64,000 nt of DNA. Origin: Candidatus Latescibacterota bacterium. GTDB lineage: Bacteria; Latescibacterota; UBA2968; GCA-2709665. The translations under genes were made by a program, and so were the position numbers. The DNA is taken from contig CBDCOX010000002.1 of assembly GCA_965219995.1 (NCBI GenBank), positions 1,408,001-1,472,000 of the forward strand, read 5' to 3'. This document shows positions 18,584 through 60,458 of the stretch, one piece after another. The notes under the pieces were generated by a model that had not been told where the DNA came from, did no database searches, and was given only the letters and a program-made list of their open reading frames with translations. Positions within the stretch are counted from its first letter, which is position 1, and each line of letters opens with the position of its first letter.

Positions 18584-18669
18584 TGCCGGAGGCCGGACTC
18601 GAACCGGCACGGGCTGATCGGCCCGGGGGATTTTAAGTCCCCTATGTCTACCAATTCCATCACTCCGGC
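18584..18669 (-). tRNA. tRNA-Leu (anticodon TAA)
   Basis: GCCGGAG acceptor stem, GGAATTGGTAGAC D arm, anticodon loop CTTAAAA, long variable arm, GGTTCGAGTCC T arm; CCA not encoded. Confidence 0.95.
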
Positions 18670-18679
18670 ACCGGATTCG

Positions 18680-18708
18680 AAAATAGCGAACCGCCCGAAT
18701 ATTGTCAA
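18680..18708 (-). promoter_or_regulatory. Promoter of tRNA-Leu and the GroES-like gene
   Basis: TTGACA-17 bp-TATTTT ending 10 bp upstream of the tRNA. Confidence 0.65.
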
Positions 18709-18787
18709 GCGGGATCAACCGTTTATCCTACTTCCCAAAAAAACAACGACTAATCTCTAGCAGACAGTCGTGTCGCCACCATTCTAA

Positions 18788-18862
18788 TGGAGGCGGCGGG
18801 CGGATTCGAACCGCCGAATAGGGGCTTTGCAGGCCCTTGCCTTACCACTTGGCCACGCCGCC
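18788..18862 (-). tRNA. tRNA-Cys (anticodon GCA)
   Basis: GGCGGCGTGGCCAAGTGGTAAGGC..CTGCAAA..GGTTCGAATCC..CGCCGCCTCCA with encoded CCA. Confidence 0.96.
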
Positions 18863-45756: not shown

Positions 45757-46745
45757 TCAAATTCCGACACAAGCACTGCCTCGTCCCGCTCCGCACTCTG
45801 CTTGGCCGCTTCGATGACGGCCATCGTATGCCGCACGGACCGTCCGCTGGCATCGGGGGTACCGCCGTTCAGACAGCAGTCGGCGAACTCGCGTATCTGA
45901 TTCCCCATTCCACTGCTCGCGTCGTCGATCACCACTTCCTCTCCGTTGAGCAACAGGCGACCGTGGGTGAACATCATCGATCCCAGGCTGCCCATGATAA
46001 ACTGGTCGTGCTGCCCGGAGTGGCAGACGACCGACTGCGACAGCACGCTCACCGCGCCATTGGCATGGTTCATTACGGCTGTATAGGAGTCCTTCTGTCC
46101 ACGGTAGCGGTCCGTACTCTCAGATCCCTGGGCGAAGACCCTGACAACCGGCGAATCCATGTACCAGTGGAGTATATCATACTCGTGAGGTCCGAAACAA
46201 TACAGTACGCAGATGCCACCGGCTTCCAGATCCAGATACCAATGGGTATCCTTTCCCGGAGCGGGCGCGGGATTGAAGTTGCCCAGCCGGCGCCGGAGCA
46301 GGTGCCCCACCTGGCCGATCACGCCGTCGGCGATGAGCTGCCTGACTTTGCGGCTGACGGGATAGTAGCGCATCACCTGGCCGACCATCAGGACGCGGTC
46401 CGCCTTTTCACACGCCGCGATCATCCGGTCGCATTCGTCGAGCGTGAGCGCCATGGGCTTTTCCACGAGGACGTGTTTGCCGGCTTCAGCGGCGGCAACC
46501 ACCTGCGCGCCGTGCTGGTTATGCGGCGTGCACACGTGGACGGCCTCGACCTCAGGGTCGTTCAGCATGGCATCCAGGTCGGTATAAGACCTCGCGCCGA
46601 ATTCGGCCGCGGCCGCCTCCGCCGGTTCCGTGTAAATGTCCATCACCGCCGCCGTTCTGATGTTTTCTGTTTCCGCGATGGCGCGCATATGCGACCGCGC
46701 GATACCGCCCGCGCCGACCATGCCTACGGATAACACGTCGCCCAT
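45753..46745 (-). CDS. Gfo/Idh/MocA oxidoreductase
   Basis: GAGGIA, CTP..H, GKHVLVEKPMA; start ATG 46745. Confidence 0.92.
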   Translation of the reverse strand: MGDVLSVGMVGAGGIARSHMRAIAETENIRTAAVMDIYTEPAEAAAAEFGARSYTDLDAMLNDPEVEAVHVCTPHNQHGAQVVAAAEAGKHVLVEKPMALTLDECDRMIAACEKADRVLMVGQVMRYYPVSRKVRQLIADGVIGQVGHLLRRRLGNFNPAPAPGKDTHWYLDLEAGGICVLYCFGPHEYDILHWYMDSPVVRVFAQGSESTDRYRGQKDSYTAVMNHANGAVSVLSQSVVCHSGQHDQFIMGSLGSMMFTHGRLLLNGEEVVIDDASSGMGNQIREFADCCLNGGTPDASGRSVRHTMAVIEAAKQSAERDEAVLVSEFE

Positions 46746-47038
46746 TTCGTATCTCCCCAATCGCTTGAACAGCGTTCTGCGGTTTTCAAAACATACGGAA
46801 GTTCGGCATCCTTGATGACGGGTCGATGACAACCCTCTCGTTCTGACGTCCAAACCTGTGGAGAGTCGTGGATTTACACGACAGATAATTGTCTTTAAAA
46901 AAGTTGAACCTTACAGAATCAACAGAGAGACAACAATCGTAAGATCGGTATGGTCAGCGCGGTGTCATACGGGCTATGGACGCCTTGTTTATCGACAAAA
47001 CGCGGGATCCGGAATATACGTTCCGCTTGCGGGATTTT

Positions 47039-47064
47039 ATCCTGTCTATCCTGTCCATCCATGT
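47039..47064 (-). repeat. Family A repeat copy
   Basis: Reverse complement ACATGGATGGACAGGATAGACAGGAT, 27 bp downstream of the stop at 47092. Confidence 0.75.
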
Positions 47065-47091
47065 TAATCTTCGGCACATGATCTAATTTGA

Positions 47092-47949
47092 TCAAAGTAC
47101 CATCTTCTTCTCGGCCGGTTCCAGGTTATCGTAATTCCAGAGTTGCCTGCCCGCAACGACCTTTTTCAGGTTGCCGACGCCATTGGGGGCCTCGAGGCCA
47201 TACAGCTGCAACTTTCGGTCCAGCCAGGCCACCTCGAGGTCCGTCAGCTCCGCACGCACGGCGTCCACGCCCAGCGACGCGATCCGCCCGCCCACGTAGA
47301 TCGTCCCGTCGTACATGGAATCTCCGAGATTCTCATCGGCGTCCCCCAGCACGATTATCCGACCGCGCTGCATCATGAATCCGGAGAGCATGCCGGTGCG
47401 TCCGGCCACCAGGATCGTGCCACCCTTCATGTTGATTCCCGTCCGCCCGCCGACGTCTCCCCTGCACACCAGGTCCCCGCCCCGCAGCGCCGCGCCGAAA
47501 GACGATCCGGCGTTCTTCTCCACAACCACGGTACCCGCCATCATATTTTCCGCGCACGACCAGCCCACGCGTCCCCGGATCCTCACGTTCGGCCCGTCGA
47601 TGAGTCCCACGGCGAAATACCCGAGAGACCCTTCGAAGTCCAGCTTCAGCCGGTTCAGAATCCCTGAACCGAGCGAGTGCTTTGCGTTCGGGTTCTGCAC
47701 GACGACGTGGCCGTAACCCCCTTCCATCAACTGCCGGATCTTCCGATTCACGTCCCGGATGGACATCGGCCCCGCGTCGAACGCCGCGCGCCTTTCGAAG
47801 TCCACCCGCAGCGACCCCGGGTACACGAAGTCATCTCCGGCCTCGGCGCGGAAGAATACCCGGTTCGTCCGGTCCGCCAGCGGCTCGTCGTGCAGCCCCA
47901 TCGCGTAGGACCGGTGCGTCTTATCGCCGCCCGCTTCTAATTTCGCCAT
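47092..47949 (-). CDS. GXGXG (GltB/FwdC C-terminal) protein, second MgsB/GlxC-like paralog with N-terminal extension
   Basis: NPNAKHSLG, GSLGYF, AENMMAG, MKGG, GFMMQRG, GDSMYDG, LWNYD. Confidence 0.85.
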   Translation of the reverse strand: MAKLEAGGDKTHRSYAMGLHDEPLADRTNRVFFRAEAGDDFVYPGSLRVDFERRAAFDAGPMSIRDVNRKIRQLMEGGYGHVVVQNPNAKHSLGSGILNRLKLDFEGSLGYFAVGLIDGPNVRIRGRVGWSCAENMMAGTVVVEKNAGSSFGAALRGGDLVCRGDVGGRTGINMKGGTILVAGRTGMLSGFMMQRGRIIVLGDADENLGDSMYDGTIYVGGRIASLGVDAVRAELTDLEVAWLDRKLQLYGLEAPNGVGNLKKVVAGRQLWNYDNLEPAEKKMVL

Positions 47950-48872
47950 ACCCGAACTTCTCCCGCGTAGGGGTCCACGGTCTCGATTTCCTGGGGCAGG
48001 ACCGTCCGGATCGCGACTTCCTCGGAGGCGAGCAGGGTTTCCCTCTCGCCTTCGTAGAGCACCATCGGCTTGGCCGCCATGGTGTCTTTGGCCATGCCCA
48101 AGCTGTCGGTTGTCGCGACCAGATACGTAAACACACCGTCCAGATCCTGTACGGACCGCACCATCGCATCCTCCAGCGAAACCGAGCGATTGAGACTGTC
48201 TGCAATATACACCGCGATCAGTTCAGAATCGCAGTCCGATACAAAGCGGTGTCCGCGACGCTCGAGGTCGCGGCGCATGGACCAGTAATTGGTCAACTGG
48301 CCGTTATGTACGACCGCGATGTCTCCGAACGGATACGCCCAGTAGGGGTGCGCGGAACGGATGTCCACGTCGGACTCGGTGGCCATGCGGACGTGTCCGA
48401 TGGCGTGGGTGCCCACGAAAGAGCCCATCCCGTACTGCCCGCATACCTCGTTGGCGTCGCCGAGGTCCTTGACGAGTTCCAGCGCGCTGCCGATCGACAG
48501 GATTTCCACGCCCTCCACGTCTTCGATGAAATCCGCGAAACGGCGCAGGTCCCCGTCGAATCTGACGCGGTACAGGAACGCGTACTCCGTGGGCTGCTCG
48601 GCCTTGAGGATCTCGCCCCCGAGCGACCCGATCCGCTCATCCACCTCCGCCCTGCGCCGCGCGATCCGGTCCTGGATTTCGAACCCGGACCCCAGGTCTT
48701 CCTTCTCGGCCGCCTTGAAGCGCATCGCCAGCACGCCGGCGGCCGGCTCGCCGTACACCGCAAACCCCGTGGAGTCCGGACCCCGGTGCTTCATCGCCTG
48801 AAGCATCATGGTCATCTCGTTCCCGATGCGGCCTGTCTTGTTCCGGTGGATAATCCCCGCGATCCCGCACAT
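47937..48872 (-). CDS. Class II glutamine amidotransferase, second MgsA/GlxB-like paralog
   Basis: N-terminal MCGIAG (start 48872), RGPDSTG, GHVRMATES, HNGQLTNY, DSE. Confidence 0.88.
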   Translation of the reverse strand: MCGIAGIIHRNKTGRIGNEMTMMLQAMKHRGPDSTGFAVYGEPAAGVLAMRFKAAEKEDLGSGFEIQDRIARRRAEVDERIGSLGGEILKAEQPTEYAFLYRVRFDGDLRRFADFIEDVEGVEILSIGSALELVKDLGDANEVCGQYGMGSFVGTHAIGHVRMATESDVDIRSAHPYWAYPFGDIAVVHNGQLTNYWSMRRDLERRGHRFVSDCDSELIAVYIADSLNRSVSLEDAMVRSVQDLDGVFTYLVATTDSLGMAKDTMAAKPMVLYEGERETLLASEEVAIRTVLPQEIETVDPYAGEVRVWRN

Positions 48873-48894
48873 ATTCACCTCGCTCCTGCCACAC

Positions 48895-50376
48895 CTATGG
48901 CAGACAATCCCAGTAGGTCTCCAGGTCCCAGTCGCTCACCGTTGCAAGAAACCGCTCCCACTCGTCGCGCTTGTAATGCATGTACACGTCGTACATCTCG
49001 CCCGGAAGCGAAGACCGGATCACCTCGTCCCGCGCCAGTTCGTCCAGCGCATCGCCGAGCGTGGTGGGCAGCTTTGTGACCTCTTTCCCCTCTTCAATCG
49101 CCTCGTAGATATTGCGGTGCTCCGGTTCGCCGGGATCGATGTCCCGCCGGATTCCGTCGTCGAACGCTTTCAGCAGCGCGCCCGCCATCAGGTAGGGGTT
49201 CACCATCGCGTCCACGGCCCGGTATTCAAACCGCCCCGGTCCGGACACCCGGAGCCCGCACGTACGGTTCTGGTACCCCCAGTCGGAATAGACAGGCGCC
49301 CAGAATCCCGTCTCCCAAAGTCGCCGGTAGGAGTTCACGGTGGAACACCCGATGGCCGTCAGCGCGGGCAGGTGTTCGATCACGCCGCCGATGCACTGCA
49401 GTCCGGTGGGCGCCGGCTCCCGTCTGCCCGGGAGGGGCATGAACAGATTCGCTCCGCCCTCCCGGTGCGTGAAGACGTCATCCATTCCCGGCAGTGATTC
49501 GTTTCCGAGCGGCTTCAGGACGTCCTCTCCACCGCGCCACAGAGAAAGATTGTGGTGGCACCCCGACGCCGAGACGCCCATGAAGGGCTTGCACATGAAA
49601 CACGCGATCAGGTCGTGCTCCCGGGCGACCTGCGCGCAGATCTGGCGGTACGTCGTGAGCCGGTCGCAGGTGGCCAGCGCATCGTCGAACGTAAAGTTCA
49701 GCTCCAGTTGTCCGGGCGCGTCTTCGTGGTCTCCCTGAATCATATCCAGTCCCATCGCACGGCCGTATTCGATCACTTTCATGACCACCGGCCGGAGGGA
49801 CTCGAACTGATCGATGTGGTAGCAGTAGGGTTTGCTGAAACCGTCCGCGGGTTTGCCGTCGGGTCCCTTCTGCAGCCACATCATCTCCGGTTCGGCGCCG
49901 TGGCGCATTTGCATTCCGTCGTGGTCCTGCGCGAATTGCGCGTGGATGCGCCGGAGGTTGCCCCTGCAGTCCGCGGTAAGACAGCCGCCGGGATTTTCCA
50001 ACTCGTCCCGGTTGCGGAAGAGCGTACAGAAGACCCGCGCCAGCCGCTTGTCCCACGGCAACTGCACGAAGGTCTCCGGATCCGGAATCCCGACGAGTTC
50101 CGACGCCTCGGGACCGTACCCGATATAGTTGTCGTACCGGTCCATGAACAGGTTGGCCGTTGCGCCGTACACCAGCTGGAACCCGCGTTCGGCGGTCCGC
50201 TCCCAGTGGTCCGCCGGAATGCCTTTGCCCACCACCCGGCCCGTCACTGAAACAAACTGGTAGTAGATATAGGTGATGCCAAGCGCGTCGATCTTTTCGC
50301 GTACCTCATCCACCCGCTCGGCCCGACCGTCTGCCCCCACATAGGCTTCAAGATCCGATGTGGCCTGATTCGACAT
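48895..50376 (-). CDS. Glutamine synthetase-like gamma-glutamyl-amine ligase (GmaS/GlnT-like, divergent)
   Basis: GAEPE, DHEDAPGQLE, KPF..SGCH, NSYRRL..WAP, NRT..R, EYRAVD; start ATG 50376. Confidence 0.85.
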   Translation of the reverse strand: MSNQATSDLEAYVGADGRAERVDEVREKIDALGITYIYYQFVSVTGRVVGKGIPADHWERTAERGFQLVYGATANLFMDRYDNYIGYGPEASELVGIPDPETFVQLPWDKRLARVFCTLFRNRDELENPGGCLTADCRGNLRRIHAQFAQDHDGMQMRHGAEPEMMWLQKGPDGKPADGFSKPYCYHIDQFESLRPVVMKVIEYGRAMGLDMIQGDHEDAPGQLELNFTFDDALATCDRLTTYRQICAQVAREHDLIACFMCKPFMGVSASGCHHNLSLWRGGEDVLKPLGNESLPGMDDVFTHREGGANLFMPLPGRREPAPTGLQCIGGVIEHLPALTAIGCSTVNSYRRLWETGFWAPVYSDWGYQNRTCGLRVSGPGRFEYRAVDAMVNPYLMAGALLKAFDDGIRRDIDPGEPEHRNIYEAIEEGKEVTKLPTTLGDALDELARDEVIRSSLPGEMYDVYMHYKRDEWERFLATVSDWDLETYWDCLP

Positions 50377-50422
50377 AGACGACCCTTTCTCTTTCAAATA
50401 GGCGTTTCCTGTCCGCGGATTC

Positions 50423-51103
50423 CTACCGGGACTCGAGGGCGCGGATCGCGCCCAGGCCGACCGGTGCGATCTGCAAATCGGCGCCGGCCTCCATGAGGGT
50501 CTCCCAAAGATACACAGCCAGCGACCTCGCCCCGAGGACCGAATAGGCCCGTAAATCGTCAATGTCGCGACGAATGACCAGTTGCGTGGTCCTGGCGACG
50601 CTGGTCTGCTTCGCGGCGCCGTCGGGAAACGCGCCGTCCGCGAAGTCCAGACCGCACGCCCGGCTCATCAGCGTCGAAGCGGACGTCCCCAGCACCCGGA
50701 TTTCGGACCAGGCATGGGTCAGATTCGTTACCGTAACGAACCTGGCGGACGCCCGCTCCATCAGTCTTCTGCGAACCGCGATGTCCCGACCGGGGGACGT
50801 GCTTACGAAGAAACAGTCGTCACGAAGGCGGTATACGCGTTCGGAATCCACCGGCACCCGGCTTCCGATTGCCACCGGCTGTGATCCCCAGACCGATCCC
50901 GCTTCCTCTCCCTCGACCATGATCTTGCCGTTGGCCGTCTCATCCGCAAGCGCCACGCCCCGCCTGGCCGCGGACGTTTCCGCTTCCGGCGTGGAGTACG
51001 CCTCCGGAATCCGCCAACCGGATGATTCCGTGAATTGCGCCCCGAGGTCCCGCGCCGTTTCGTGAAGCGGCGACAATTTCACCGGCGCCGACGATCGGTT
51101 CAC
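50423..51103 (-). CDS. soxG: Sarcosine oxidase gamma-like / GcvT N-terminal domain subunit (MgdD-like)
   Basis: GTG start overlaps the upstream TGA; SPLH..GA.F..GW, CGLDF..F, RSLAVYLW. Confidence 0.75.
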   Translation of the reverse strand: MNRSSAPVKLSPLHETARDLGAQFTESSGWRIPEAYSTPEAETSAARRGVALADETANGKIMVEGEEAGSVWGSQPVAIGSRVPVDSERVYRLRDDCFFVSTSPGRDIAVRRRLMERASARFVTVTNLTHAWSEIRVLGTSASTLMSRACGLDFADGAFPDGAAKQTSVARTTQLVIRRDIDDLRAYSVLGARSLAVYLWETLMEAGADLQIAPVGLGAIRALESR

Positions 51104-54024
51104 GTCTGCAACCTTTCTCCGCCGGGGTCGTAGAAGGGCCCGTGGTGAACATACGCGTCTTCGAGCTCGCCGTTTCTGCGAATCTGAAACGGTGTACCGG
51201 CTTTCGCCGCCACGTTCGCGGGCAGCCAGCACAGGCCGATGGTCTCTCCGAGCGCCGGACTGAAACGGCACGACGTCAACCAGCCGATGATCTCCTGTTT
51301 TCCGTTCCCGTCCCGGCGCACCGCCTGCAGGCCTTCTTCCGGCACGAGGTCAGGCCGCGCCATCCTGAAGCCCACCAGCCGCTGCGACGTCCCCCGTTCC
51401 GACATCCTGGTCAACATGGGCTTGCCCAAAAAATCCCGTTTGTCCAACTTCACGGCCCATTCCATATTCGCGGAATACGGATCGGTCAGTGCGTCGGTGT
51501 CCTGACCGACGATGATATGCGCCTTCTCCAGGCGGAGCACACGCTGGGCTTCCACGCCGAACGGCGCGATGTCGAATTCCTTCCCCGCAGCCATCAGCGC
51601 CTGCCACACGTGGAGGCCATAGGACGCGGGGCAGTGGATTTCGTAGGAAAGCTCGCCGGTAAATCCGATACGCAGGACCCGGCAAAGCACCCCGGCGACC
51701 CGTGTCGACCGGACGCGCATGTACGGGAATTTCCGATGGCTCAGGTCCCGGTCCGTGAGAAGCTGAAGCACCTCCCTGGACCTCGGTCCCGCCAGGTTGA
51801 ACGCCGCGTTGGCATCGGTGAGGTTGACCGCGTGCACCCCGTCACCCCAGCCCGACTGTGACCACCATTGAATCCATTCGAACACCGTTGTCGCGCCCGT
51901 GGACGTGGTGCTCATATACCATTCGTTTTCCTGTATGCGGGCGCACACGCCGTCGTCGATCACCACGCCTTCGTCGTTGCACATCACGCCGTACCGGACG
52001 CGGCCGACGCCCAGCCTGCGCCACTGGTTGATGTACAGCTTCTCCAGCAATTCAGGCACGCCGGGCCCGGTCAGCTGGATCTTGCCCAGCGTACTCACGT
52101 CCATCAGGCCCACCCGCTCGCGCACGGCCTTCACTTCGGCGACAGCATCTCCATAGTCTTCCGGCCGCAGCCAGAGGCCCGCCACCATCATCCTGGCGCC
52201 CCGGTCCAGATGCCACTGATGCGCGGGAGACACCTGAACGGGCTCCATGTTCTGCCCGGCCAACGCGCCCAGCGTTACCGGCGCCACGGGCGGTCGTGAC
52301 GTGGTTTTTCCGGTCTCCTGCACATTCTCGCCGTTCGCGCGGGCACAAAGGTGCACCGTATTCATGGAGCACATCCTGCCCTGGCACGGACCCATCGAAA
52401 TGGTGCTGTACCGCTTCAGCAGTTCGAGACTGTCGTACCCCTCGACGATTGCCGTCTGCAAATCCACGTCGGTGACGTCTTCACAATAGCAGAGAAACCT
52501 CTTCTTCCTGCCCGGAACGATCGTACGTGCAGACGTCCGCACCGGCTCACCGGCCTTCCGGAAATGCAGGTCGGAGACCTCGGACGCGGCGGGTCCGTCC
52601 CCGAGGCCCAGGAAGGCCGCGGCGCTCCTTCCGGCGATCCGCCCGTCTTCCATGGCGCAGGCGGCCGTGCCGGCGCCCGCGGCGCGGCCCGCCAAGAACA
52701 TGCCTTCGGGCGCGTCCGCCGCCCGCGGTTCCGAACGTTGCTCGTCGTAAGCGGACTCGCCGCCCGCCATGTGGAACAACGCCAGGTCCGGCGTCCAGCC
52801 CACGCTGACAACGATCAGGTCGCAAGGCACGTTTCGCGCCGCGGACCGATCCGCCTCTCCCAACGGATCGATCCGGGCGATCCGGGCGGCCTGAACGCGC
52901 TTTGAACCGACGGCCTCCAGAATCGTATGCCGGAAATACGCGGGCACGCCCCGGGAAATCAACGCTTGAGCGGCCGTACTCGAACACGAGTGGCGTTCAT
53001 CCACGACCGCGGCGACTTCAACGTTCGCCTCCGCCAGCTCCGCGGCCACGTCCCACCCATCGTCATTCGCGGTGACGACCAGGGCCCTCTCGCCCGGCTT
53101 CACGCCGTAAAGATGGACCAGGCGCTGAACGGCGCTGCCCAGCATCACCCCGGGGAGGTCGTTGTGGTCGAACAGCAGCGGCGTCTCGATGGCGCCCGCC
53201 GCAACAATCACGGACTTCGCCCGTATCTTGAACAGCCGCGAACCCTTCACCGCGGCCAGCCAGTTGTCCTGGTACCAGCCCAGGACGGCCGCATCCGTGA
53301 AGATGTCGATATCCGGACGGCTCGCCACCGAAGCCTGCAACTCCTCCAGGGTACCGGCCCGGGAAGGCGAGAAGCGCAGCCGGCCGCCCAGAGACGGCTC
53401 GACGTCGAAAAGCGCGACGCCTGCGCCCTGCTCCGATGCCGCAACGGCCGCGGCCATCCCCGACGGTCCGCCGCCGACCACCGCCACGTCGGCGTGCAGG
53501 TACTCTTTGTCGAACGCGCCGGGCCGCGACGCGAGGTCCACTTTGCCCAGCCCCGCCGCGCGGCGCAGCACGTGCTCGTAGGACGGCCAGAGCGCGGCAG
53601 GCCGGATAAAGGTCTTGTAGTAGAAACCCACCGGCATCAGCGGCGCGGCCAGCTGCGTGAGTGAAAGCAGATCGCGGTCCAGTGACGGCTGCGCGTTCTG
53701 GGAACAAACGGCCATTCCCGTTTCGACGCGGCGCGTGCACGCCCGGACGTTCGGCTCGTCGCCTATCTGGACCAGGCAGTTCGGACATTGACCCGCGCAG
53801 CACATCAGACCTCTGGGCCGGTGATACTTGAACGACCGGCTGAAGACGCGCACCCCGGAGGCGGCCAATGCCGATGCAATCGTGTCGCCCCGGTATCCGG
53901 CATAGTCCCGTCCGTCGAAGGTAAACGCCACCCGGGACCCGCGATCGATCACCTCGCCGTTGCGCGGCGTGAGCCTGTGGGCATCCGTACCTGAACCGGC
54001 CTGAAGGGTCGTTTCAGTCGCCAT
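51100..54024 (-). CDS. soxA: Sarcosine oxidase alpha-like subunit (MgdC-like)
   Basis: GDTIASAL..RSFKYHRPRG, GFYYKTF, VGGGPSG, LKRYST, DVSTLGK, RIGFTGELSYE, LRLEKAH, PFYDP. Confidence 0.9.
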   Translation of the reverse strand: MATETTLQAGSGTDAHRLTPRNGEVIDRGSRVAFTFDGRDYAGYRGDTIASALAASGVRVFSRSFKYHRPRGLMCCAGQCPNCLVQIGDEPNVRACTRRVETGMAVCSQNAQPSLDRDLLSLTQLAAPLMPVGFYYKTFIRPAALWPSYEHVLRRAAGLGKVDLASRPGAFDKEYLHADVAVVGGGPSGMAAAVAASEQGAGVALFDVEPSLGGRLRFSPSRAGTLEELQASVASRPDIDIFTDAAVLGWYQDNWLAAVKGSRLFKIRAKSVIVAAGAIETPLLFDHNDLPGVMLGSAVQRLVHLYGVKPGERALVVTANDDGWDVAAELAEANVEVAAVVDERHSCSSTAAQALISRGVPAYFRHTILEAVGSKRVQAARIARIDPLGEADRSAARNVPCDLIVVSVGWTPDLALFHMAGGESAYDEQRSEPRAADAPEGMFLAGRAAGAGTAACAMEDGRIAGRSAAAFLGLGDGPAASEVSDLHFRKAGEPVRTSARTIVPGRKKRFLCYCEDVTDVDLQTAIVEGYDSLELLKRYSTISMGPCQGRMCSMNTVHLCARANGENVQETGKTTSRPPVAPVTLGALAGQNMEPVQVSPAHQWHLDRGARMMVAGLWLRPEDYGDAVAEVKAVRERVGLMDVSTLGKIQLTGPGVPELLEKLYINQWRRLGVGRVRYGVMCNDEGVVIDDGVCARIQENEWYMSTTSTGATTVFEWIQWWSQSGWGDGVHAVNLTDANAAFNLAGPRSREVLQLLTDRDLSHRKFPYMRVRSTRVAGVLCRVLRIGFTGELSYEIHCPASYGLHVWQALMAAGKEFDIAPFGVEAQRVLRLEKAHIIVGQDTDALTDPYSANMEWAVKLDKRDFLGKPMLTRMSERGTSQRLVGFRMARPDLVPEEGLQAVRRDGNGKQEIIGWLTSCRFSPALGETIGLCWLPANVAAKAGTPFQIRRNGELEDAYVHHGPFYDPGGERLQT

Positions 54025-54304
54025 CGACGCCCTCACCGGCCTCGTCTGCCTGCCAGACGTACGTCTTCAGGACTTCCTGCGTCTTCGTATGCCGTTCCGC
54101 CAGAAACCACAGGCCGCACCCCGCCTGGTGATACCACCACGCCTTCTCCACGCCCAGCCTGTTGTCGCGCAAATAGAGATACGCGGCCAGTTCCGCGTCG
54201 CCGCAACCGTCGGGGTCCAGAGGCCGGGGATTGTATTCACCACCGAAGCGGAACTCGCTGACGTTGCGTTCGCCGCAATTCGGACAGGATAGGATCAACA
54301 TCAA
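54014..54304 (-). CDS. soxD: Sarcosine oxidase delta-like subunit (MgdB-like)
   Basis: CPNCGER..EFRFGG, YLYLRDN, W.H..GC..W...R.T.T. Confidence 0.9.
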   Translation of the reverse strand: MMLILSCPNCGERNVSEFRFGGEYNPRPLDPDGCGDAELAAYLYLRDNRLGVEKAWWYHQAGCGLWFLAERHTKTQEVLKTYVWQADEAGEGVDGD

Positions 54305-54373
54305 ACGCTCAGATTCCGGGTCCGCGCGGAGTCCTGCATTGCCGCAAGGCCGACCCTGTTCGCTACGGTGCCG

Positions 54374-55612
54374 TCAATGACCCACCGACGCCGCGCCCTT
54401 TTCGCCGACCAGGTCGAATTCCTCGAACCTGGACAGCCGGAAGGGATGAATCAGATCCGGGGTGCGTTCGCGGGCGATCAATTCGGCCATGGTGCGGCCG
54501 CAGATGGGGGAGGCCTTGAAGCCGTAGGTGCCCCAACCCACGTCCACGAGAAAGCCACGCACCGGCGTAAAGCCCATTATCGGGCTGTAATCGGGTGTCA
54601 TATCGCACAGCCCCGCCCACTGGCGCAACACCCGCACCTTGCTCAAAAACGGAAACAGCTCCAGCATGTGCCCGGCAATGCTTTCCATAAACGCCAGCGA
54701 AGAATCCATCGAATAGGAAGTATAGGGATCCACGCTCGCGCCCATCACCAGTTCGCCCCGATCGGACTGGCTTACGTACACGTGCAGACTGCCCGACACG
54801 ATGACCACGTCCAGAAACGGCTTCAGGGGTTCCGTAACGCACGCCTGCAGCGGAAAGGTGGTCAGCGGCAGGCGAACGCCCGCCATATCGGCGATGGTCG
54901 ACCCCCATCCCGCCGTCGCGTTCAACACCGTACAGGTCTTGATGTATCCCCCCGTCGTTTCCACGCCGACCACGCAATCGCCCCGCACGTCGATCCCGGT
55001 TACCGCGGTCTGCTGGTGGATGTGCACCCCCCGCCGGTCGGCCTGGTGGGCATAGCCCCATACGACGGCGTCGTGACGGACGATGCCTCCGGGAGGATGG
55101 TACAGCGCGGCCAGAATCGGGTAGCGGGGATGGTCGCTGACGTCGATGCCCGGGCACAGCCTCTCGATTTCATCGGGCCATATCAGCTCCGACACGACGC
55201 CCTGAAGCTTGTTCACCTCCGCCCGCCGGCGCATGGTGCGCACCGCCCCGTCGGTATGCGCCAGCGTGAGGTGCCCGCGCTGGCTGAACATGACGTTGAA
55301 GTCCAGCTCCGTCGCCATCTGCTCGTACAGCCGCACGCTTTCGTCGTAGAAGCGCACGCCCTCGGGGGTCAGGTAATTGCTTCGGATAATGGCGGTATTC
55401 CGCCCGCTCCCTCCGGAACCGATGTACCCCCGTTCAATGATGGCGACGTCCGTGATGCCGTGTTCCACGGCCAGATAGTAGGCGCAGGCCAGCCCGTGGG
55501 CGCCCCCGCCCACGATCACCACGTCGTAACTGTCCCTGACCGGACGGGACCGCCACATCCTGGGCAGGAGCCCGTTCCCGTTCAGCGCCTGGCGGATCAG
55601 CTTGAACGACAC
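54374..55612 (-). CDS. soxB: Sarcosine oxidase beta-like subunit (MgdA-like)
   Basis: GGGAHGLA, GRNTAIIRSNY, RHDAVVWG (flavinylation His), GWGTYGFKA, EKGAASVGH. Confidence 0.92.
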   Translation of the reverse strand: MSFKLIRQALNGNGLLPRMWRSRPVRDSYDVVIVGGGAHGLACAYYLAVEHGITDVAIIERGYIGSGGSGRNTAIIRSNYLTPEGVRFYDESVRLYEQMATELDFNVMFSQRGHLTLAHTDGAVRTMRRRAEVNKLQGVVSELIWPDEIERLCPGIDVSDHPRYPILAALYHPPGGIVRHDAVVWGYAHQADRRGVHIHQQTAVTGIDVRGDCVVGVETTGGYIKTCTVLNATAGWGSTIADMAGVRLPLTTFPLQACVTEPLKPFLDVVIVSGSLHVYVSQSDRGELVMGASVDPYTSYSMDSSLAFMESIAGHMLELFPFLSKVRVLRQWAGLCDMTPDYSPIMGFTPVRGFLVDVGWGTYGFKASPICGRTMAELIARERTPDLIHPFRLSRFEEFDLVGEKGAASVGH

Positions 55613-55662
55613 GTCACGGTCCTCGATAATCCCGTCCCCAGGACGGGCGGTACGTCAGTCTG

Positions 55663-57006
55663 TCACCAGCCCGGCCCACCCCCGGCGACACGGTTCGTCC
55701 CGACCAGCGGGAGATTGCAGATCATGGACGCTTCCGAAGTCAGCGCGCGCATGTCTTCCGGCTCCAGGTCGTGTACGTCGGCCTTGCCGCACGCCCTCGC
55801 CAGAATCTGGATTTCCGACGTCATGGCCTGCAGCAGGTTGGCCACGCGCTCGGCTGCTTCGTCCACGTGGAGCCTCGCCATCAGATCGGGGTCCTGCGTG
55901 GTTATTCCCACCGGACAGCGACCGGTATGGCAGTGATGGCAGCGATACGGCTCCGCGCCCAGCGCCCGATAGTCCTCCACGTGAATCGGTTTGTTGCAGT
56001 TCAATGCCATCAGTGCCGCCGTGCCGATGTATACCGCGTCGGCGCCCAGCGCCATGGCCTTGGCGGCGTCCACGCCGTTCCGGATGCCACCCGCGATGAT
56101 CAGCTGGACCTTTCCGTACATGCCGATATCTTCGAGCGCCGCTCGTGCCTCACATACCGCCGCCAGCGTGGGAATGCCCGTATGCTCCTGGCAGATTTCC
56201 GCGGACGCCCCGGTGCCGCCCTCCATGCCGTCCACCACGATCACGTCGGCCCCGGCCTTGGCCGCCAGGCGGACGTCGTCGAATACCCGCGTGGCGCCCA
56301 TCTTGACGAAAATCGGGACCTGCCAGTCCGTGGCCTCGCGCAGCTCCTCGATCTTGATGATCATATCGTCCGGACCCAGGAAATCCGGGTGCCGCGCCGG
56401 ACTCCGCTGGTCCACGCCGAGGGGCAGGTCCCTCTGCGACGCCACGTCGCCGAGCACCTTGGCGCCCAAAAGCAATCCCCCCGTGCCGGGCTTGGCGCCC
56501 TGTCCGATGGTGAGTTCGATCCCGTCGGCAACCCGGAGGTCGTGCACGTTGATCCCGTACCGGGACGGCAGTACCTCGTAGACCAGCACTTTGCTTTCTT
56601 CCCGCTCCGCCTTCAACATCCCGCCGTCGCCGGTTGTATTGGAGGACCCGACCATGTTGGCGCCGCGAGCCAGCGCCACCTTGGCATTATAGGACAGCGC
56701 GCCCCAACTCATGCCGGTGATCATGATGGGCGTATCCAGCACGATGGGCTTTTCGGCGTAACGACCGCCGAGAACCGTCTCCGCCGAGCAGCGCTCCCGG
56801 TATCCTTCCAGCGGAATTCGCGTCAACGTGCAGGGTATGAAGGTCAGGTCGTCGAACGTGGGCCACCGCCGCTCCCGCAGTGTGCCGAACCCCCGGATCC
56901 GATAACGGCCCAGTTCGGCCTTGACCTGGATGTCTTCGATGACGGCGGGCGTGAACGTACCGCTGGCCTGCACCGGATGAAAGCTCCCGTTTTGATCTTC
57001 CACCAT
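55663..57006 (-). CDS. mgsC: FMN-binding glutamate synthase family protein (MgsC/GlxD)
   Basis: PLEGYRERC, GMSWGALS, TTGDGGM, GQGAKPG.GG.LLG, RSPARHPD, CHHCHTGRCPVG; start ATG 57006. Confidence 0.88.
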   Translation of the reverse strand: MVEDQNGSFHPVQASGTFTPAVIEDIQVKAELGRYRIRGFGTLRERRWPTFDDLTFIPCTLTRIPLEGYRERCSAETVLGGRYAEKPIVLDTPIMITGMSWGALSYNAKVALARGANMVGSSNTTGDGGMLKAEREESKVLVYEVLPSRYGINVHDLRVADGIELTIGQGAKPGTGGLLLGAKVLGDVASQRDLPLGVDQRSPARHPDFLGPDDMIIKIEELREATDWQVPIFVKMGATRVFDDVRLAAKAGADVIVVDGMEGGTGASAEICQEHTGIPTLAAVCEARAALEDIGMYGKVQLIIAGGIRNGVDAAKAMALGADAVYIGTAALMALNCNKPIHVEDYRALGAEPYRCHHCHTGRCPVGITTQDPDLMARLHVDEAAERVANLLQAMTSEIQILARACGKADVHDLEPEDMRALTSEASMICNLPLVGTNRVAGGGPGW

Positions 57007-57224
57007 TGTCGCCCTGTTCGGGTTTAATCTTGATGCGTCATTTTTCTGTGACGTTAAGTCGAATATACGCAAGTCTGTGAAGGCGATTTGAAGTCGGATT
57101 TCCAGGAACCTTCAGGTCACTTGACGTCAACGGAAAAAATGTCCTTCCGGAGGACCCTGATGCCCCGTTTCGGAAGTCTTCTCCACAGTGTCGGCTTGCT
57201 GGATTCTTCGATTCAAGGCAATTT

Positions 57225-57396
57225 GCCACAAAAGGCACAAAAACAGCGATTCTGTTACAGGGCGTATAGCCGAAAGACTATGCAAATACGTCCAGGGTCG
57301 CGGCGTTACGACACACGCCGTTTCGCACCAATACCCTTTGTGTCTTTTGTGCTTTCTGTGGCCAATTTAAAGGTTATTTTTTTCGAGTTAAGGCTA
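57225..57396. repeat. Inverted pair of family B repeats; right part homologous to the left end of the 28101 MITE
   Basis: GCCACAAAAGGCACAAAAACA (57225-57245) faces CTTTGTGTCTTTTGTGCTTTCTGTGGCC (57336-57363); 57319-57396 is 67/78 identical to 28101-28178, inverted. Confidence 0.8.
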
Positions 57397-57407
57397 ACCG
57401 TTCAGCG

Positions 57408-58103
57408 TTACAACGCTTCCCGCCAGACGGCGCGCTCGTCCTTATCGAAATTCCAGAGTTTGCGCCCGGCCAACACTTTCTTGAACGACGTTACGTCCAG
57501 TCGCCTGTCCAGATGTTCCTGTACGGAAGCGCTCAGAAAAGCGAACTCGTCCTCGGCGGGCGTTTCGACCACCGCGTCATTGCCCAGTTCCGCGATCTCA
57601 CCGCCGACGAAACACTCGGTCTCGTACATCGAATCGGCGAAGGCGTCGCCGGTGTCGCCGCAAACGATGATGCGACCCCTCTGGCCCATGAAGCCGGCCA
57701 TATACCCGCAATCTCCGCCGACGACGATCAGCCCGCCCTTCATTGCCACGCCCAGCCGCGCCGAGGCGTGACCCCGGACCACCACCGTCCCCCCGCGAAT
57801 GGACGCCGCGGAACCGTTTCCCGCGTTGCCGTGGACGATGACCTTCCCGCTCATCATTGACTCCGCCAGGCCCCACCCCGCACTGCCCTTTACCTCGACG
57901 GTCGCCCCGTCGATCATACCGCCGCAATAATATCCTACGCTACCGTCCAGCGTGAGATGGACTGGGTCCAGGAGCGCCACCCCCAGATTATGCCGCGCAC
58001 CCGGATCCAGGACACGCACTTCGCCTTCCCCCGCGGAAACGAACGCCCTGATCTCCCGGTTGATCTCCCGCGTCGTCTTTCCGTTGCAGGTCAGTTGTGC
58101 CAT
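57408..58103 (-). CDS. mgsB: GXGXG domain protein (MgsB/GlxC)
   Basis: TREIN, PGARHNL, GSVGYYCGG, AESMMSG, MKGG, GFMGQRG, DSMYE, RKLWNF. Confidence 0.88.
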   Translation of the reverse strand: MAQLTCNGKTTREINREIRAFVSAGEGEVRVLDPGARHNLGVALLDPVHLTLDGSVGYYCGGMIDGATVEVKGSAGWGLAESMMSGKVIVHGNAGNGSAASIRGGTVVVRGHASARLGVAMKGGLIVVGGDCGYMAGFMGQRGRIIVCGDTGDAFADSMYETECFVGGEIAELGNDAVVETPAEDEFAFLSASVQEHLDRRLDVTSFKKVLAGRKLWNFDKDERAVWREAL

Positions 58104-58996
58104 AGCCGCATGTCCTTCGCACGGGCTTCAACCACGTCGTAGCATCCATCGAGGGCCGAACGGAACGCAATCTCTTCCGTGGCCACCGCTGCGAAATCGG
58201 CCGTTTCCGCAAACAGGAGCGGTTTGAAGGCGTACGGATCCCGGACGAAACCGACGGCGTCGGGTGTGGCCACCAGATAGCTGAACGAGCCGTCCAACTC
58301 TACCAGAGAGGCGGCCATTGCCGCCTCCAGGTCCTTTCCGTCCGCAAGTTTCCGGTGCAGGTACATCCCGATGATTTCGGAATCGTTCTCGGTATAGAAC
58401 CTTGCGCCGTCTTGCTCGTAGATGCGCCGCAACTTGTGGTAATTGGTAATGTGTCCGTTATGGACAATGGCCAGGTCCGGATGGCCGTGGGCCCAGAACG
58501 GCTGGGAATGGCTCAGATCGATTCTGGATTCGGTAGAAAGGCGGGTATGGCCGATGCCGTGGGTCCCTTTGAAGCCGGAAATCCGGTAGGTCTTGTCGAG
58601 GTTCCGGGGTGACCCCACCTGCTTGACGATTTCCAGCCGGTCTCCCATACTCACCACCTCCACACCCTCGCCCGCGGCCTCAATGGCCTCTTCGAGTTGC
58701 CCGGGCGCTCCGTCATAGGCGACGACCAGACGCAGGTACTCCTCCGTTCGGGCCCAACCGGACACGCCGCCGATTGCCTCCGCCCGTGCGACGACCCGCC
58801 GCGCGGTTGCCTCGTAATCCGCGTGTACTCCCAGACTCACGCGGAGGACCATGCCCCCGTATTGTCCTCCACCATACAGCGCAACGCCTGCCGAATCCGG
58901 CCCCCGGCAGTCCAGGGCGCCCAGCATTTTGAGGATGGTCTGCCCGAGACCGCCGGTATCGTCCTGCCGGTTCCAGAATCCCACAATGCCGCACAT
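58091..58996 (-). CDS. mgsA: Class II glutamine amidotransferase (MgsA/GlxB)
   Basis: N-terminal MCGIVG (start 58996), RGPDSAG, GHTRLSTES, HNGHITNY, TENDSE. Confidence 0.88.
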   Translation of the reverse strand: MCGIVGFWNRQDDTGGLGQTILKMLGALDCRGPDSAGVALYGGGQYGGMVLRVSLGVHADYEATARRVVARAEAIGGVSGWARTEEYLRLVVAYDGAPGQLEEAIEAAGEGVEVVSMGDRLEIVKQVGSPRNLDKTYRISGFKGTHGIGHTRLSTESRIDLSHSQPFWAHGHPDLAIVHNGHITNYHKLRRIYEQDGARFYTENDSEIIGMYLHRKLADGKDLEAAMAASLVELDGSFSYLVATPDAVGFVRDPYAFKPLLFAETADFAAVATEEIAFRSALDGCYDVVEARAKDMRLWHN

Positions 58997-59108
58997 TGTC
59001 TTTTCTCCGGAATTGCACAAAAAAACCCGAACCAGCTTCGGTGAAGCGGGTACGGATGATCGCACCGCACAGGACAAAAGTCAAGCCAAACAATAACTGT
59101 CCCGTCCC

Positions 59109-60458
59109 CTATCGGGCAGCCCCGCAGCACCGCTTGAATTTCCTTCCGCTGCCGCAGGGACAGGGCTCGTTCCGGCCCGTGCTTCGGGCCCGGGAGGCCG
59201 CCCGTCGTGATTCCCCGGCCCGCACCCAATGCATCACGTTCGCCGCGGGCCGGCCAGCCGCGAGTTCCTTCGCCATCATCTGCATGTAGGGGTCCACGTG
59301 GCCGAAGAACATCTTGTACCCCGTGCAGAGGTAGTTCAGCCCTGCCTCCCCGTCGGGCGTATGGATGAACCTCTGCTTGGGACAGCCCCCGTTGCACGCA
59401 AACCTGTAGTCGCAGGCCCTGCAATACGCGGGCAGGGTATCCCGCTTGTCGGACCCGAATTTCTCCTGCAGGGGGCTGGACACCATTTCACGAATGCTCT
59501 TTTCGCGGACGTTGCCGAGATTGTACCGGGGATAAACGAAATGGTCGCAGGAATACAGATCTCCGTTGTGTTCGATGATCAGCGCCCTGCCGCACTTTTC
59601 CGCGAAGATGCAGAGACTGGCGTCCTGGCCCATCCAGCTTCCCAGCGCGATATCGAACATCTGGACGAAATACCGGCCAACGTCCTTTCGGACCCATTCG
59701 TCGAAGACCGCGCAAAGGAACCGGCCGTACTGCGCCGAGCCCACCGACCACTTCGAAACCTGAGCCCGCCCGTCGAACTCCGGCGCCACAAGCTCCAGGA
59801 GATCGTCACCAGGCGAGTCCGCGATTCGCTCCACAATCGGGATGAACTGCATGTAGCGGCTCCCGATGGACTTGAGAAAGCGGTAGACTTTCACCGGATA
59901 ATCCGCGTTATGGGCCTGCAGCACCGTGAGGGTATTGTATTCCACCCGGTGATGCTTCAGGACGTCCAGACCCGCCATCACGCGGTCGAACGTGGGCTTT
60001 CCCCCTTTGTCCACCCGGTACCTGTCGTGCATCTCCCGCGGTCCGTCCACGGACAATCCCACCAGAAACCCGTGTTCGGCCAGAAACTCCCCCCACTCGT
60101 TGTCGAGCAGGATTCCGTTGGTCTGGAAGGCATTCGTGATGGTTTTTCCATTGGCATACGTCGACTGAAAGTCCACCGCCCGCCGGTAGAAATCCACGCC
60201 CATCAGAGTCGGTTCGCCGCCCTGCCAGGCAAAATGCACCTCCGGGACGTCCTGCGCTTCGATGTAGTGGCGGACGTACAGCTCCAGCGTCCCGTCGTCC
60301 ATCCGCCAGTTCCCGCCGGCGTCGGGGTACAGCTTTTCCTTCTCCAGGTAGAAACAGTACTTGCAATCTATATTGCAGACCGCGCCGGACGGCTTTGCCA
60401 TCACGTGACAGGCTTCGGCGGATTCGATGGTCGTCTCGTCGATTGCCATTTCGGTCAT
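59109..60458 (-). CDS. Anaerobic sulfatase maturase (radical SAM/SPASM) with C-terminal SEC-C motif
   Basis: HVMAKP, CNIDCKYC, WQGGEP, YSCDHFV, CRAC..CNGGCPK, GRNEPCPCGSGRKFKRCC; start ATG 60458. Confidence 0.93.
   Translation of the reverse strand: MTEMAIDETTIESAEACHVMAKPSGAVCNIDCKYCFYLEKEKLYPDAGGNWRMDDGTLELYVRHYIEAQDVPEVHFAWQGGEPTLMGVDFYRRAVDFQSTYANGKTITNAFQTNGILLDNEWGEFLAEHGFLVGLSVDGPREMHDRYRVDKGGKPTFDRVMAGLDVLKHHRVEYNTLTVLQAHNADYPVKVYRFLKSIGSRYMQFIPIVERIADSPGDDLLELVAPEFDGRAQVSKWSVGSAQYGRFLCAVFDEWVRKDVGRYFVQMFDIALGSWMGQDASLCIFAEKCGRALIIEHNGDLYSCDHFVYPRYNLGNVREKSIREMVSSPLQEKFGSDKRDTLPAYCRACDYRFACNGGCPKQRFIHTPDGEAGLNYLCTGYKMFFGHVDPYMQMMAKELAAGRPAANVMHWVRAGESRRAASRARSTGRNEPCPCGSGRKFKRCCGAAR

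Follow-up and report, generated by a model that had tools for sequence, protein, structure and literature searches.

A case for two complete amine modules in a Candidatus Latescibacterota genome, the second split across the chromosome

The window analysed here is a stretch of 64,000 nucleotides from a Candidatus Latescibacterota genome (assembly GCA_965219995.1, contig CBDCOX010000002.1, positions 1,408,001 to 1,472,000). Between positions 47092 and 58996, it carries ten genes that are all on the minus strand and co-directional according to open reading frame (ORF) calls and translations, and that resemble genes of the N-methylglutamate (NMG) pathway. The first three, A1-B1-C1, are referred to as set 1. 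GS2-A2-B2 at the other end of the cluster form set 2 together with a gene outside the window, C2x; the window's genome is designated G000. Very probably, the window holds pieces of two complete and separately inherited three-subunit enzymes of the split glutamate synthase type, and not two A/B pairs that work on one C subunit.

A1 (58091-58996, 301 amino acids) is an MgsA-like class-II amidotransferase of the N-terminal nucleophile (Ntn) type with the Pfam domains GATase_6/7. B1 (57408-58103, 231 amino acids) is an MgsB-like GXGXG subunit (Pfam GXGXG, 59.1 bits). C1 (55663-57006, 447 amino acids from its ATG) is an MgsC-like subunit with the flavin mononucleotide (FMN) domain (Pfam Glu_synthase, 323.5 bits), and its reading frame stays open upstream to a TTG at 57072. 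A, B and C thus provide as separate polypeptides the amidotransferase, GXGXG and FMN domains of glutamate synthase (GltS), and the amidotransferases carry a cysteine directly after the start methionine. Intergenic gaps are 70 nt or less throughout the cluster, except for the 401-nt spacer between B1 and C1.

Next in transcription order are four genes in the order beta, delta, alpha, gamma: a soxB-like, MgdA-like flavin adenine dinucleotide (FAD) subunit (54374-55612; TIGR01373, 497.4 bits, cut-off 529.45), a soxD-like subunit (54014-54304; Pfam SoxD, 96.7 bits), a soxA-like, MgdC-like subunit with a GcvT folate domain (51100-54036; TIGR01372, 872.4 bits, cut-off 1164; Pfam GCV_T, Fer2_4 and SO_alpha_A3), and a soxG-like subunit (50423-51103; TIGR01375, 39.2 bits; Pfam GCV_T), whose GTG start overlaps the soxA stop. 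This order and the folate-binding GcvT domain in the alpha subunit correspond to the plan of the NMG dehydrogenase MgdABCD and of heterotetrameric sarcosine oxidase. As all four scores are below the TIGR cut-offs for SoxB/D/A/G, the genes are family-like, and an identity as sarcosine oxidase does not follow.

The cluster ends with the glutamine synthetase (GS)-like ligase GS2 (48895-50376, 493 amino acids; Gln-synt_C, 269.8 bits; TIGR03105, 302.6 bits, cut-off 469.6), the class-II amidotransferase A2 (47937-48872, 311 amino acids; Pfam GATase_6/7/4), and the GXGXG subunit B2 (47092-47949, 285 amino acids; Pfam GXGXG, 58.4 bits). The initial annotation had listed the ten genes in this order, and ORFs together with Pfam and NCBIfam matches bear it out (two GATase-II/GXGXG pairs, the FMN subunit, the soxBDAG-like genes and the GS-like ligase). 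Its finer details hold as well: both amidotransferases begin with the nucleophile cysteine (MCGIVG and MCGIAG), the overlap with the respective GXGXG gene is 13 bp in both cases (58091-58103 and 47937-47949), and the motifs GHTRLSTES and GHVRMATES are both present in the sequence. The paralogues are clearly diverged, with 38% identity between A1 and A2 over 313 amino acids and 46% between B1 and B2 over 217. The N-terminal extension of B2, put at about 55 residues, measures about 53, since residue 63 of B2 falls opposite residue 10 of B1, and in an alignment it is kept among B2 relatives. The possibility that one of the pairs is degenerate was rejected: both are intact, and within the genus, B2 is 88-96% and B1 about 90% identical.

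From the single FMN subunit in the window, it had been concluded that two A/B pairs share one MgsC. C1 is indeed the only such subunit within the window, but the genome, which is 98.6% complete, encodes a second one, C2x (G000:C2:251094-252365), about 1.2 Mb away and 60% identical to C1. The same genome holds only two GXGXG genes that match B2 and only two full-length amidotransferase genes that match A1; a third match to A1 is partial and weak. Hence, the MgsC appears to be shared because the window edge cuts off C2x.

The gene order in other lineages links C2x to A2 and B2. We sampled 80 loci around B2 relatives, one genome per species, and mapped the window proteins onto them; matches covering less than 30-40% of the query were discarded. 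This synteny survey of the GS-like ligase with A2 and B2, which the initial annotation had proposed, revealed that the operon continues into C2x: an orthologue 82-91% identical to the remote gene lies directly after B2 in 73 of the 80 loci. Three of the remaining seven end within 600 nt of B2, and the other four (L007-L010) are Candidatus Latescibacterota genomes of the window's own genus, 88-91% identical to the window. Directly before B2, A2 is found in 75 loci, and GS2 lies ahead of A2 in 67. C2x is followed by a conserved protein of about 145 amino acids in 65 of the 73 loci (seven end before it, and one has an intervening Amt gene). An FAD amine oxidase lies directly upstream of GS2 in 31 of the 80 loci, the trimethylamine N-oxide (TMAO) demethylase Tdm lies inside the locus in 11, and an acyl-CoA dehydrogenase (ACAD)-like gene occurs in two other loci of the 80 (L011, L067). 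Identities across phyla are 65-79% for B2, 82-91% for C2x and 66-81% for the small protein, and GS2 orthologues are 67-78% identical. The full set-2 operon is therefore GS2-A2-B2-C2x-small. All five genes are intact in the window's genome, split into GS2-A2-B2 in the window and C2x-small at G000:C2:251094-252854. In three Proteobacteria (L030, L057, L072), set 2 lies beside a reference-type mgsABC-gmaS.

The distribution within the phylum leads to the same pairing. Among 151 genomes (including G000) searched with C1, 30 carry a C1-type gene (at least 77% identity), and 19 of those 30 also carry a C2x-type gene, which is 58-61% identical to C1. B2-type genes (at least 70%) occur in exactly the same 19 genomes, and in 11 genomes set 1 occurs alone. 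A modular or hybrid NMG synthase, in which A1-B1 and A2-B2 would be alternative or joint partners of C1, as the initial annotation had envisaged, can draw on the single FMN subunit inside the ten-gene cluster and on an arrangement that is stable in all 15 genomes of the window's genus. It is contradicted by the existence of C2x and its conservation at 96% identity in relatives, by its adjacency to B2, seen in the sister genus as well as in 73 of the 80 surveyed loci, by the occurrence of B2 and C2x in an identical set of genomes, and by the genomes with set 1 alone. We regard it as extremely improbable.

The relatives also allow the history of the locus to be followed. In genomes of three other genera (G062, G068, G008), A1-B1-C1-soxB-D-A-G-GmaS form one contiguous cluster of eight gene families; a GmaS-type gene (at least 68% identity) is present in 27 of the 30 genomes with a C1-type gene. 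In the sister genus (G078 and L011), the order A1-B1-C1-soxBDAG-GS2-A2-B2-C2x-small-ACAD-Tdm-FADox-Amt-Fhs-GmaS is contiguous. Comparison of relatives with and without the insert places a ten-gene cassette, GS2 to Fhs, between soxG and gmaS. All 15 genomes of the window's genus have the split arrangement, with the cassette cut between B2 and C2x. C1 and C2x are about 1.2-1.36 Mb apart in seven of these genomes (besides G000) in which they share a contig, and they lie on different contigs in the other seven. Four relatives have C2x elsewhere at 96% identity to that of the window's genome, and their genes downstream of B2 are the same as in the window. The genus-wide split and the conservation of C2x at 96% indicate that the split is old and that both halves are under selection. 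We propose that an ancestor acquired the set-2 operon as part of the ten-gene cassette, which integrated between soxG and gmaS. A later rearrangement in the window's genus would have separated B2 from C2x, and the FAD oxidase would have been relocated to a third site, with all pieces remaining intact. Overall, we see in the locus an NMG cluster of the classic type into which a TMAO/second-amine cassette was inserted and which was split at a later time. As an explanation of the data as a whole, two complete amine modules, the second one split across the genome, fit best, and we hold this view with moderate confidence.

Related arrangements were seen elsewhere in the phylum. In another family (e.g., G152:C1:66532-68430 and G066:C1:2683411-2685333), GXGXG and FMN domains lie in one frame of 665-955 amino acids, an apparent B-C fusion, and these genomes carry a GmaS-type gene at 69-75% identity. 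In other genera, a C gene 55-57% identical to C1 lies directly beside a GS gene that is 45-51% identical to the remote ligase described below.

At the remote site, the gene order is C2x, the 145-amino-acid protein, the ACAD-like gene, Tdm, a transporter of the Amt family, Fhs (formate-tetrahydrofolate ligase) and a GmaS-type ligase. Tdm (L006:12766-15102) has the DUF1989 and GcvT architecture (DUF1989, GCV_T, GCV_T_C), scores 1240 bits against NF053776 (cut-off 1100), and matches PDB 9q59 with 960.4 bits; it can thus be assigned to the TMAO demethylases. The ligase scores 596 bits against TIGR03105 (cut-off 469.6), the family of type III GS/GlnT. Against structures, it reaches 444.6 bits with 7cql and 381.9 bits with 9qur, and at most 287 bits with ordinary GS. 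The 9qur chain is named "Glutamate--methylamine ligase," and 7cql, described in its file as a type III glutamate--ammonia ligase, is presumably a GmaS. Hence, the GmaS-type gene of this genome lies at the remote site, and the earlier identification of the GS-like ligase in the window as gmaS of the classic pathway was wrong (596 vs 302.6 bits). GS2 scores 180.8 bits with 7cql and 175.8 bits with 9qur, no better than its 195.7 bits with an archaeal ordinary GS. As its TIGR03105 score is below the cut-off and its structure scores do not exceed that with the archaeal GS, GS2 is not a GmaS orthologue.

For set 1, plasmid p42e of Rhizobium etli served as a comparison; the annotation of its cluster comprises tdm, tmm, glnT and genes of the dmmDABC and mgsABC types. 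MgsA/MgsB/MgsC of R. etli are 35/39/56% identical to set 1 and 32/37/52% identical to set 2, and its GlnT (GmaS) is 43% identical to the remote ligase vs 30% to GS2. The NMG pathway with GmaS, MgsABC and MgdABCD is described, in the sections of the cited papers that treat it, for Methyloversatilis universalis, Methylocella silvestris and plasmid pAMI6 of Paracoccus aminophilus (PMC3160333, PMC4543880). The same gene content is clustered on Aminobacter aminovorans pAA01, Sinorhizobium meliloti pSymB and R. etli p42e. In the window's genome, soxBDAG adjoins set 1, and the GmaS-type ligase is 1.2 Mb away. Proteins of the C1 type occur at 80-95% identity in sources attributed to Gemmatimonadetes, Planctomycetes, Acidobacteria, Chloroflexota and others, and Joint Genome Institute (JGI) names for some B2-like and C1-like proteins are "methylamine---glutamate N-methyltransferase" subunits. 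From gene context, A1-B1-C1 with the soxBDAG-like genes and the GmaS-type ligase are likely to be the phylum's version of the NMG pathway for monomethylamine. In this pathway, the GmaS-type ligase would make gamma-glutamylmethylamide, the amidotransferase would free the amine within the complex, the FMN subunit would form N-methylglutamate, and the Sox-like dehydrogenase would hand the methyl group to tetrahydrofolate.

A feature that separates the FMN subunits is a cysteine site. C1 and C2x have four cysteines (LNC...C-x2-C-x4-C-PVG) that align with the cluster ligands of the genome's own GltB (GC-x5-C-x4-C-PVG), at the position that binds the 3Fe-4S cluster in GltS. Five reference MgsC proteins have no cysteine at this Fe-S position. 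Some Proteobacteria have yet another A-B-C set, of a fourth kind, in the neighbourhood of the set-2 operon (L012:239-3036, L050:935-3732, L063:16810-19610); its C subunit is 41-44% identical to C1, is without the 17-residue insertion that precedes the motif in C1 and C2x, and has a GltB-like cysteine motif.

Set 2 was next considered with respect to its substrate. Tdm above the cut-off was found in 16 genomes of the phylum sample, all within the 19 that carry set 2, and in none of the 11 with set 1 alone; the three of the 19 in which it was not found are two drafts from the window's genus and one genome of genus g25. Tblastn with R. etli proteins did not find Tmm, DmmA, DmmB or DmmC in the window's genome (98.6% complete). 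Profile searches of the same genome gave no match to the Dmm markers, chosen according to the R. etli annotation (DmmA family NF041259, DUF3445/HODM PF11927), or to NF058570; the PF11927 search is weak because control genomes gave no match either. We also searched the genomes of 50 of the 75 loci from outside the Latescibacterota, roughly those with the longest loci. Tdm was present in 33 of the 50 (32 above the cut-off) and the DmmA family in two, with both together only in G201. The gap in Dmm, the presence of Tdm and the history of the cassette make dimethylamine the leading candidate substrate.

By the logic of the NMG pathway, set 2 could take the dimethylamine made by Tdm, a reading that we consider plausible though short of probable. 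GS2 would ligate the amine to glutamate, A2 would free it in the complex, C2x would form the N-alkylated glutamate, and the FAD oxidase would remove one methyl group, so that the product feeds set 1 and MgdABCD. In its fuller form, this proposal is tentative: set 2 may be a glutamate-mediated dimethylamine pathway that replaces DmmDABC in Tdm-positive bacteria without dimethylamine monooxygenase, that runs via gamma-glutamyl-dimethylamide and N,N-dimethylated glutamate to N-methylglutamate, and that was acquired as one ten-gene cassette in the NMG operon. A literature search, with subscription journals outside its scope, found no paper on a route via gamma-glutamyl-dimethylamide or dimethylglutamate. 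The earlier idea of an extension to another amine or a second step thus survives in spirit, as set 2 travels with Tdm and no dimethylamine monooxygenase was found, but the extension would not operate via a shared C1.

Set 2 might instead be a second route for monomethylamine, that is, a GmaS-MgsABC isozyme system of other affinity or regulation that was recruited with Tdm, with dimethylamine being excreted or handled otherwise. The subunit plan of set 2 is the same as that of GmaS-MgsABC, the JGI names given above fit this view, and some Proteobacteria keep set 2 beside a reference-type mgsABC-gmaS (the three loci mentioned above). The ligase argues in the other direction, as GS2 matches GmaS-type enzymes no better than ordinary GS, and it would be hard to explain why one operon-like cluster should hold two routes for the same amine. 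Moreover, set 2 follows Tdm and not the NMG genes, given the 11 genomes with set 1 only and no Tdm, and DmmA was found in just one of the 33 Tdm-positive carriers. We therefore consider a second monomethylamine route unlikely.

Several points weigh against the assignment of the two modules to mono- and dimethylamine. The functions of both sets are read from sequence and context. Our tree contained 34 C subunits. Fourteen were of types other than set 2, 18 were drawn from 71 set-2-type rows by keeping one in four, and the remaining two were C1 and C2x themselves; reference MgsC was represented by Aminobacter, S. meliloti, Pseudosulfitobacter, a Mycobacterium plasmid and the second set of L030. 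Reference MgsC, the C1 type and the C2x type formed three well-supported clades, and their branching order is a three-way split. Set 1 is even slightly nearer to set 2 than to reference Mgs (38% vs 32-37% for A, 46% vs 36-42% for B, and 59% vs 54-56% for C). As C1 has the four cysteines and reference MgsC has none, set 1 is not a plain orthologue of the proteobacterial enzyme. Within the phylum, the co-occurrence of Tdm and set 2 perhaps reflects two independent events (genera g1 and g3, and genus g25), and the DmmA counts in the other carriers cover genomes with set 2 only. Seventeen of the 50 other carriers showed no Tdm, although these genomes are possibly incomplete. Finally, the Fe-S site in C2x suggests an electron exchange with a partner, which would be superfluous in a simple redox-neutral scheme.

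The carriers without Tdm would fit a set 2 that acts on another small amine or amide product without a tie to TMAO, such as an ethyl-, hydroxyethyl- or other N-alkyl amine, with the linkage to Tdm reflecting a shared need for tetrahydrofolate-linked C1 metabolism. The varied neighbours around set 2 point the same way, as do the genes near the FAD oxidase, which are of the dimethylformamidase-beta-like, homocysteine S-methyltransferase-family and thiamine pyrophosphate (TPP) enzyme types. A dimethylformamidase-type neighbour would, however, likewise yield dimethylamine. The extreme conservation of B2, C2x and the small protein across phyla argues for one fixed substrate, and Tdm lies within the locus itself in 11 of the 80 cases. 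Another amine as the substrate is thus quite doubtful.

The cysteine site in turn would suit an ammonia assimilation unit. A split archaeal form of glutamate synthase exists, the gene content of GS2-A2-B2-C2x mimics a GS plus the three domains of the GltS alpha subunit, and C2x has the four cysteines at the GltS Fe-S site; the operon could accordingly be a GS-glutamate synthase (GOGAT)-type unit. The window's genome, however, already has a full-length GltB-like frame of 1543 amino acids and another GS-like gene, and set 2 is distributed patchily (19 of 151 genomes of the phylum) and tracks Tdm. Instead of a GltD-like reductase, it is regularly accompanied by the FAD amine oxidase (31 of 80 loci) and by the small protein, which belongs to no known family; no GltD-like gene was present among the annotated neighbours of set 2, where no search aimed at GltD was made. 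This makes a role in ammonia assimilation very unlikely, and dimethylamine remains the substrate that we favour for set 2.

The other cassette genes are less easily placed. The small protein of 145 amino acids (L006:10921-11358; orthologues 66-81% identical across phyla) has 55 invariant columns among 27 sequences. It matched no Pfam or NCBIfam family, and an Atlas search gave no usable match. An AlphaFold model from the 27 aligned sequences reached a pLDDT (predicted local distance difference test) of 73.6. A wide structural search returned four chains at Z of at least 2; as the best Z is only 2.6, no fold is assigned. The ACAD-fold flavoprotein between the small protein and Tdm (L006:11330-12769; G000:C2:252829-254268) has Rv1679/FadE16 as its best family (218 bits, below the cut-off) and also matches the ACAD-fold monooxygenases SfnB, DszC and HsaA weakly. 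The FAD oxidase of the cassette lies at a third chromosomal site (G000:C2:911917-913257). Upstream of it (L098:2746-9261; G000:C2:906745-913260) are genes for a dimethylformamidase-beta-like protein (PF20254), a homocysteine S-methyltransferase-family protein and a TPP enzyme; an amidase of the dimethylformamidase type would also release dimethylamine. A few kb past the remote island lies a hydantoinase A/B pair (L093:12142-16088; G000:C2:268142-272088), which is caprolactamase-like with 543 and 300 bits, both below the cut-offs.

The long spacer between B1 and C1 is occupied by a repeat. Blastn against the own genome identified a dispersed, miniature inverted-repeat transposable element (MITE)-like repeat of 369 nt at 57029-57397 (no strand assigned), with more than 80 full or partial copies in this genome, the best of them 80-88% identical over 340-374 nt. 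According to blastn, the loci L007-L011 lack it, and contigs from RNA libraries (runs X1 and X2) connect 57028 directly with 57398, without the 369 nt. An inverted-repeat search of the spacer found internal arms of 15-23 nt only and no clear terminal repeats. As a terminator-like hairpin lies inside the repeat (57155-57141), the repeat might lower the expression of C1. A scan of 46700-59400 for promoter- and terminator-like sites was uninformative (3 promoter-like sites vs 2.7 in shuffles, and 12 terminator-like sites vs 8.0). Rfam at gathering thresholds, applied to the window, L006 and L093, found no riboswitch near the cluster; the only matches were two tRNA genes on the minus strand of the window (18584-18862). 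The spacer after B2 (about 47023-47056) contains a motif of about 30-40 nt of which the genome holds more than 100 copies at 83-100% identity; it could be a repetitive extragenic palindromic (REP)-like element or a regulatory site.

For transcription, we mapped contigs from four metatranscriptome runs (two studies) at a likeness of at least 93%. They cover 21-27 of 30 bins of 46800-59200, including parts of B2, A2, GS2, the sox genes, C1 and B1; cover of A1 (57978-58805) is almost nil and uninformative. As the contigs come from relatives and a carry-over of DNA is possible, they hint only weakly, if at all, at transcription of both sets.

The locus addresses an unsettled question, namely the fate of dimethylamine in bacteria that have the TMAO demethylase and are without DmmDABC. 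It offers a clean comparative case, with close relatives differing by one cassette that brings Tdm and set 2 into an older methylamine operon. A cultured carrier of set 2 exists (the isolate of L019, genome G161), so that ordinary genetics and enzyme assays can be applied; its genome has Tdm and gave no DmmA match. For annotation, it advises caution: GS-like, amidotransferase, GXGXG and FMN genes are not readable as gmaS-mgsABC from their domains alone, there are three FMN-subunit subfamilies here, two of which keep the Fe-S site, and a window-sized view can make a split operon resemble the sharing of a subunit.

Among known systems, DmmDABC catalyses the step that links Tdm to the NMG pathway and that set 2 would fill. 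On R. etli p42e, its genes lie between tdm/tmm and mgsABC-glnT. It is unrelated to set 2 in sequence and mechanism, being composed of a heme-dependent oxidative demethylase family protein, a DmmA family protein and a PDR/VanB reductase. The parts of the literature that deal with this enzyme describe it in Ruegeria pomeroyi and P. aminophilus (PMC5520151, PMC4543880), and passages of one of these papers give dmmDABC as absent from all SAR11 representatives (PMC5520151). In the corresponding passages, the dimethylamine step is regarded as open for SAR11 (PMC5520151, PMC8918994).

GltB resembles both sets in that A, B and C are its amidotransferase, GXGXG beta-helix and FMN domains and in that the cysteines of C1 and C2x are at its cluster-ligand positions. 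It differs, as the sets here are without the central domain and have amine-catabolic neighbours, with no GltD-type partner nearby according to the neighbour annotation, without an aimed search. C1 and C2x also have a 17-residue insertion before the cysteine motif, which is common to reference MgsC.

With the NMG pathway, set 1 together with soxBDAG and the remote ligase shares the same eight gene families, which form one contiguous cluster in three relatives. The order here is ABC-soxBDAG-GS, whereas reference clusters have ABC-GS with soxBDAG downstream or divergent, and C1 shares only 54-56% identity with reference MgsC and carries the four Fe-S-site cysteines. Set 2 follows the same plan as the NMG pathway, with a ligase of another family, a longer GXGXG subunit, the protein of about 145 amino acids and a single-subunit FAD oxidase.

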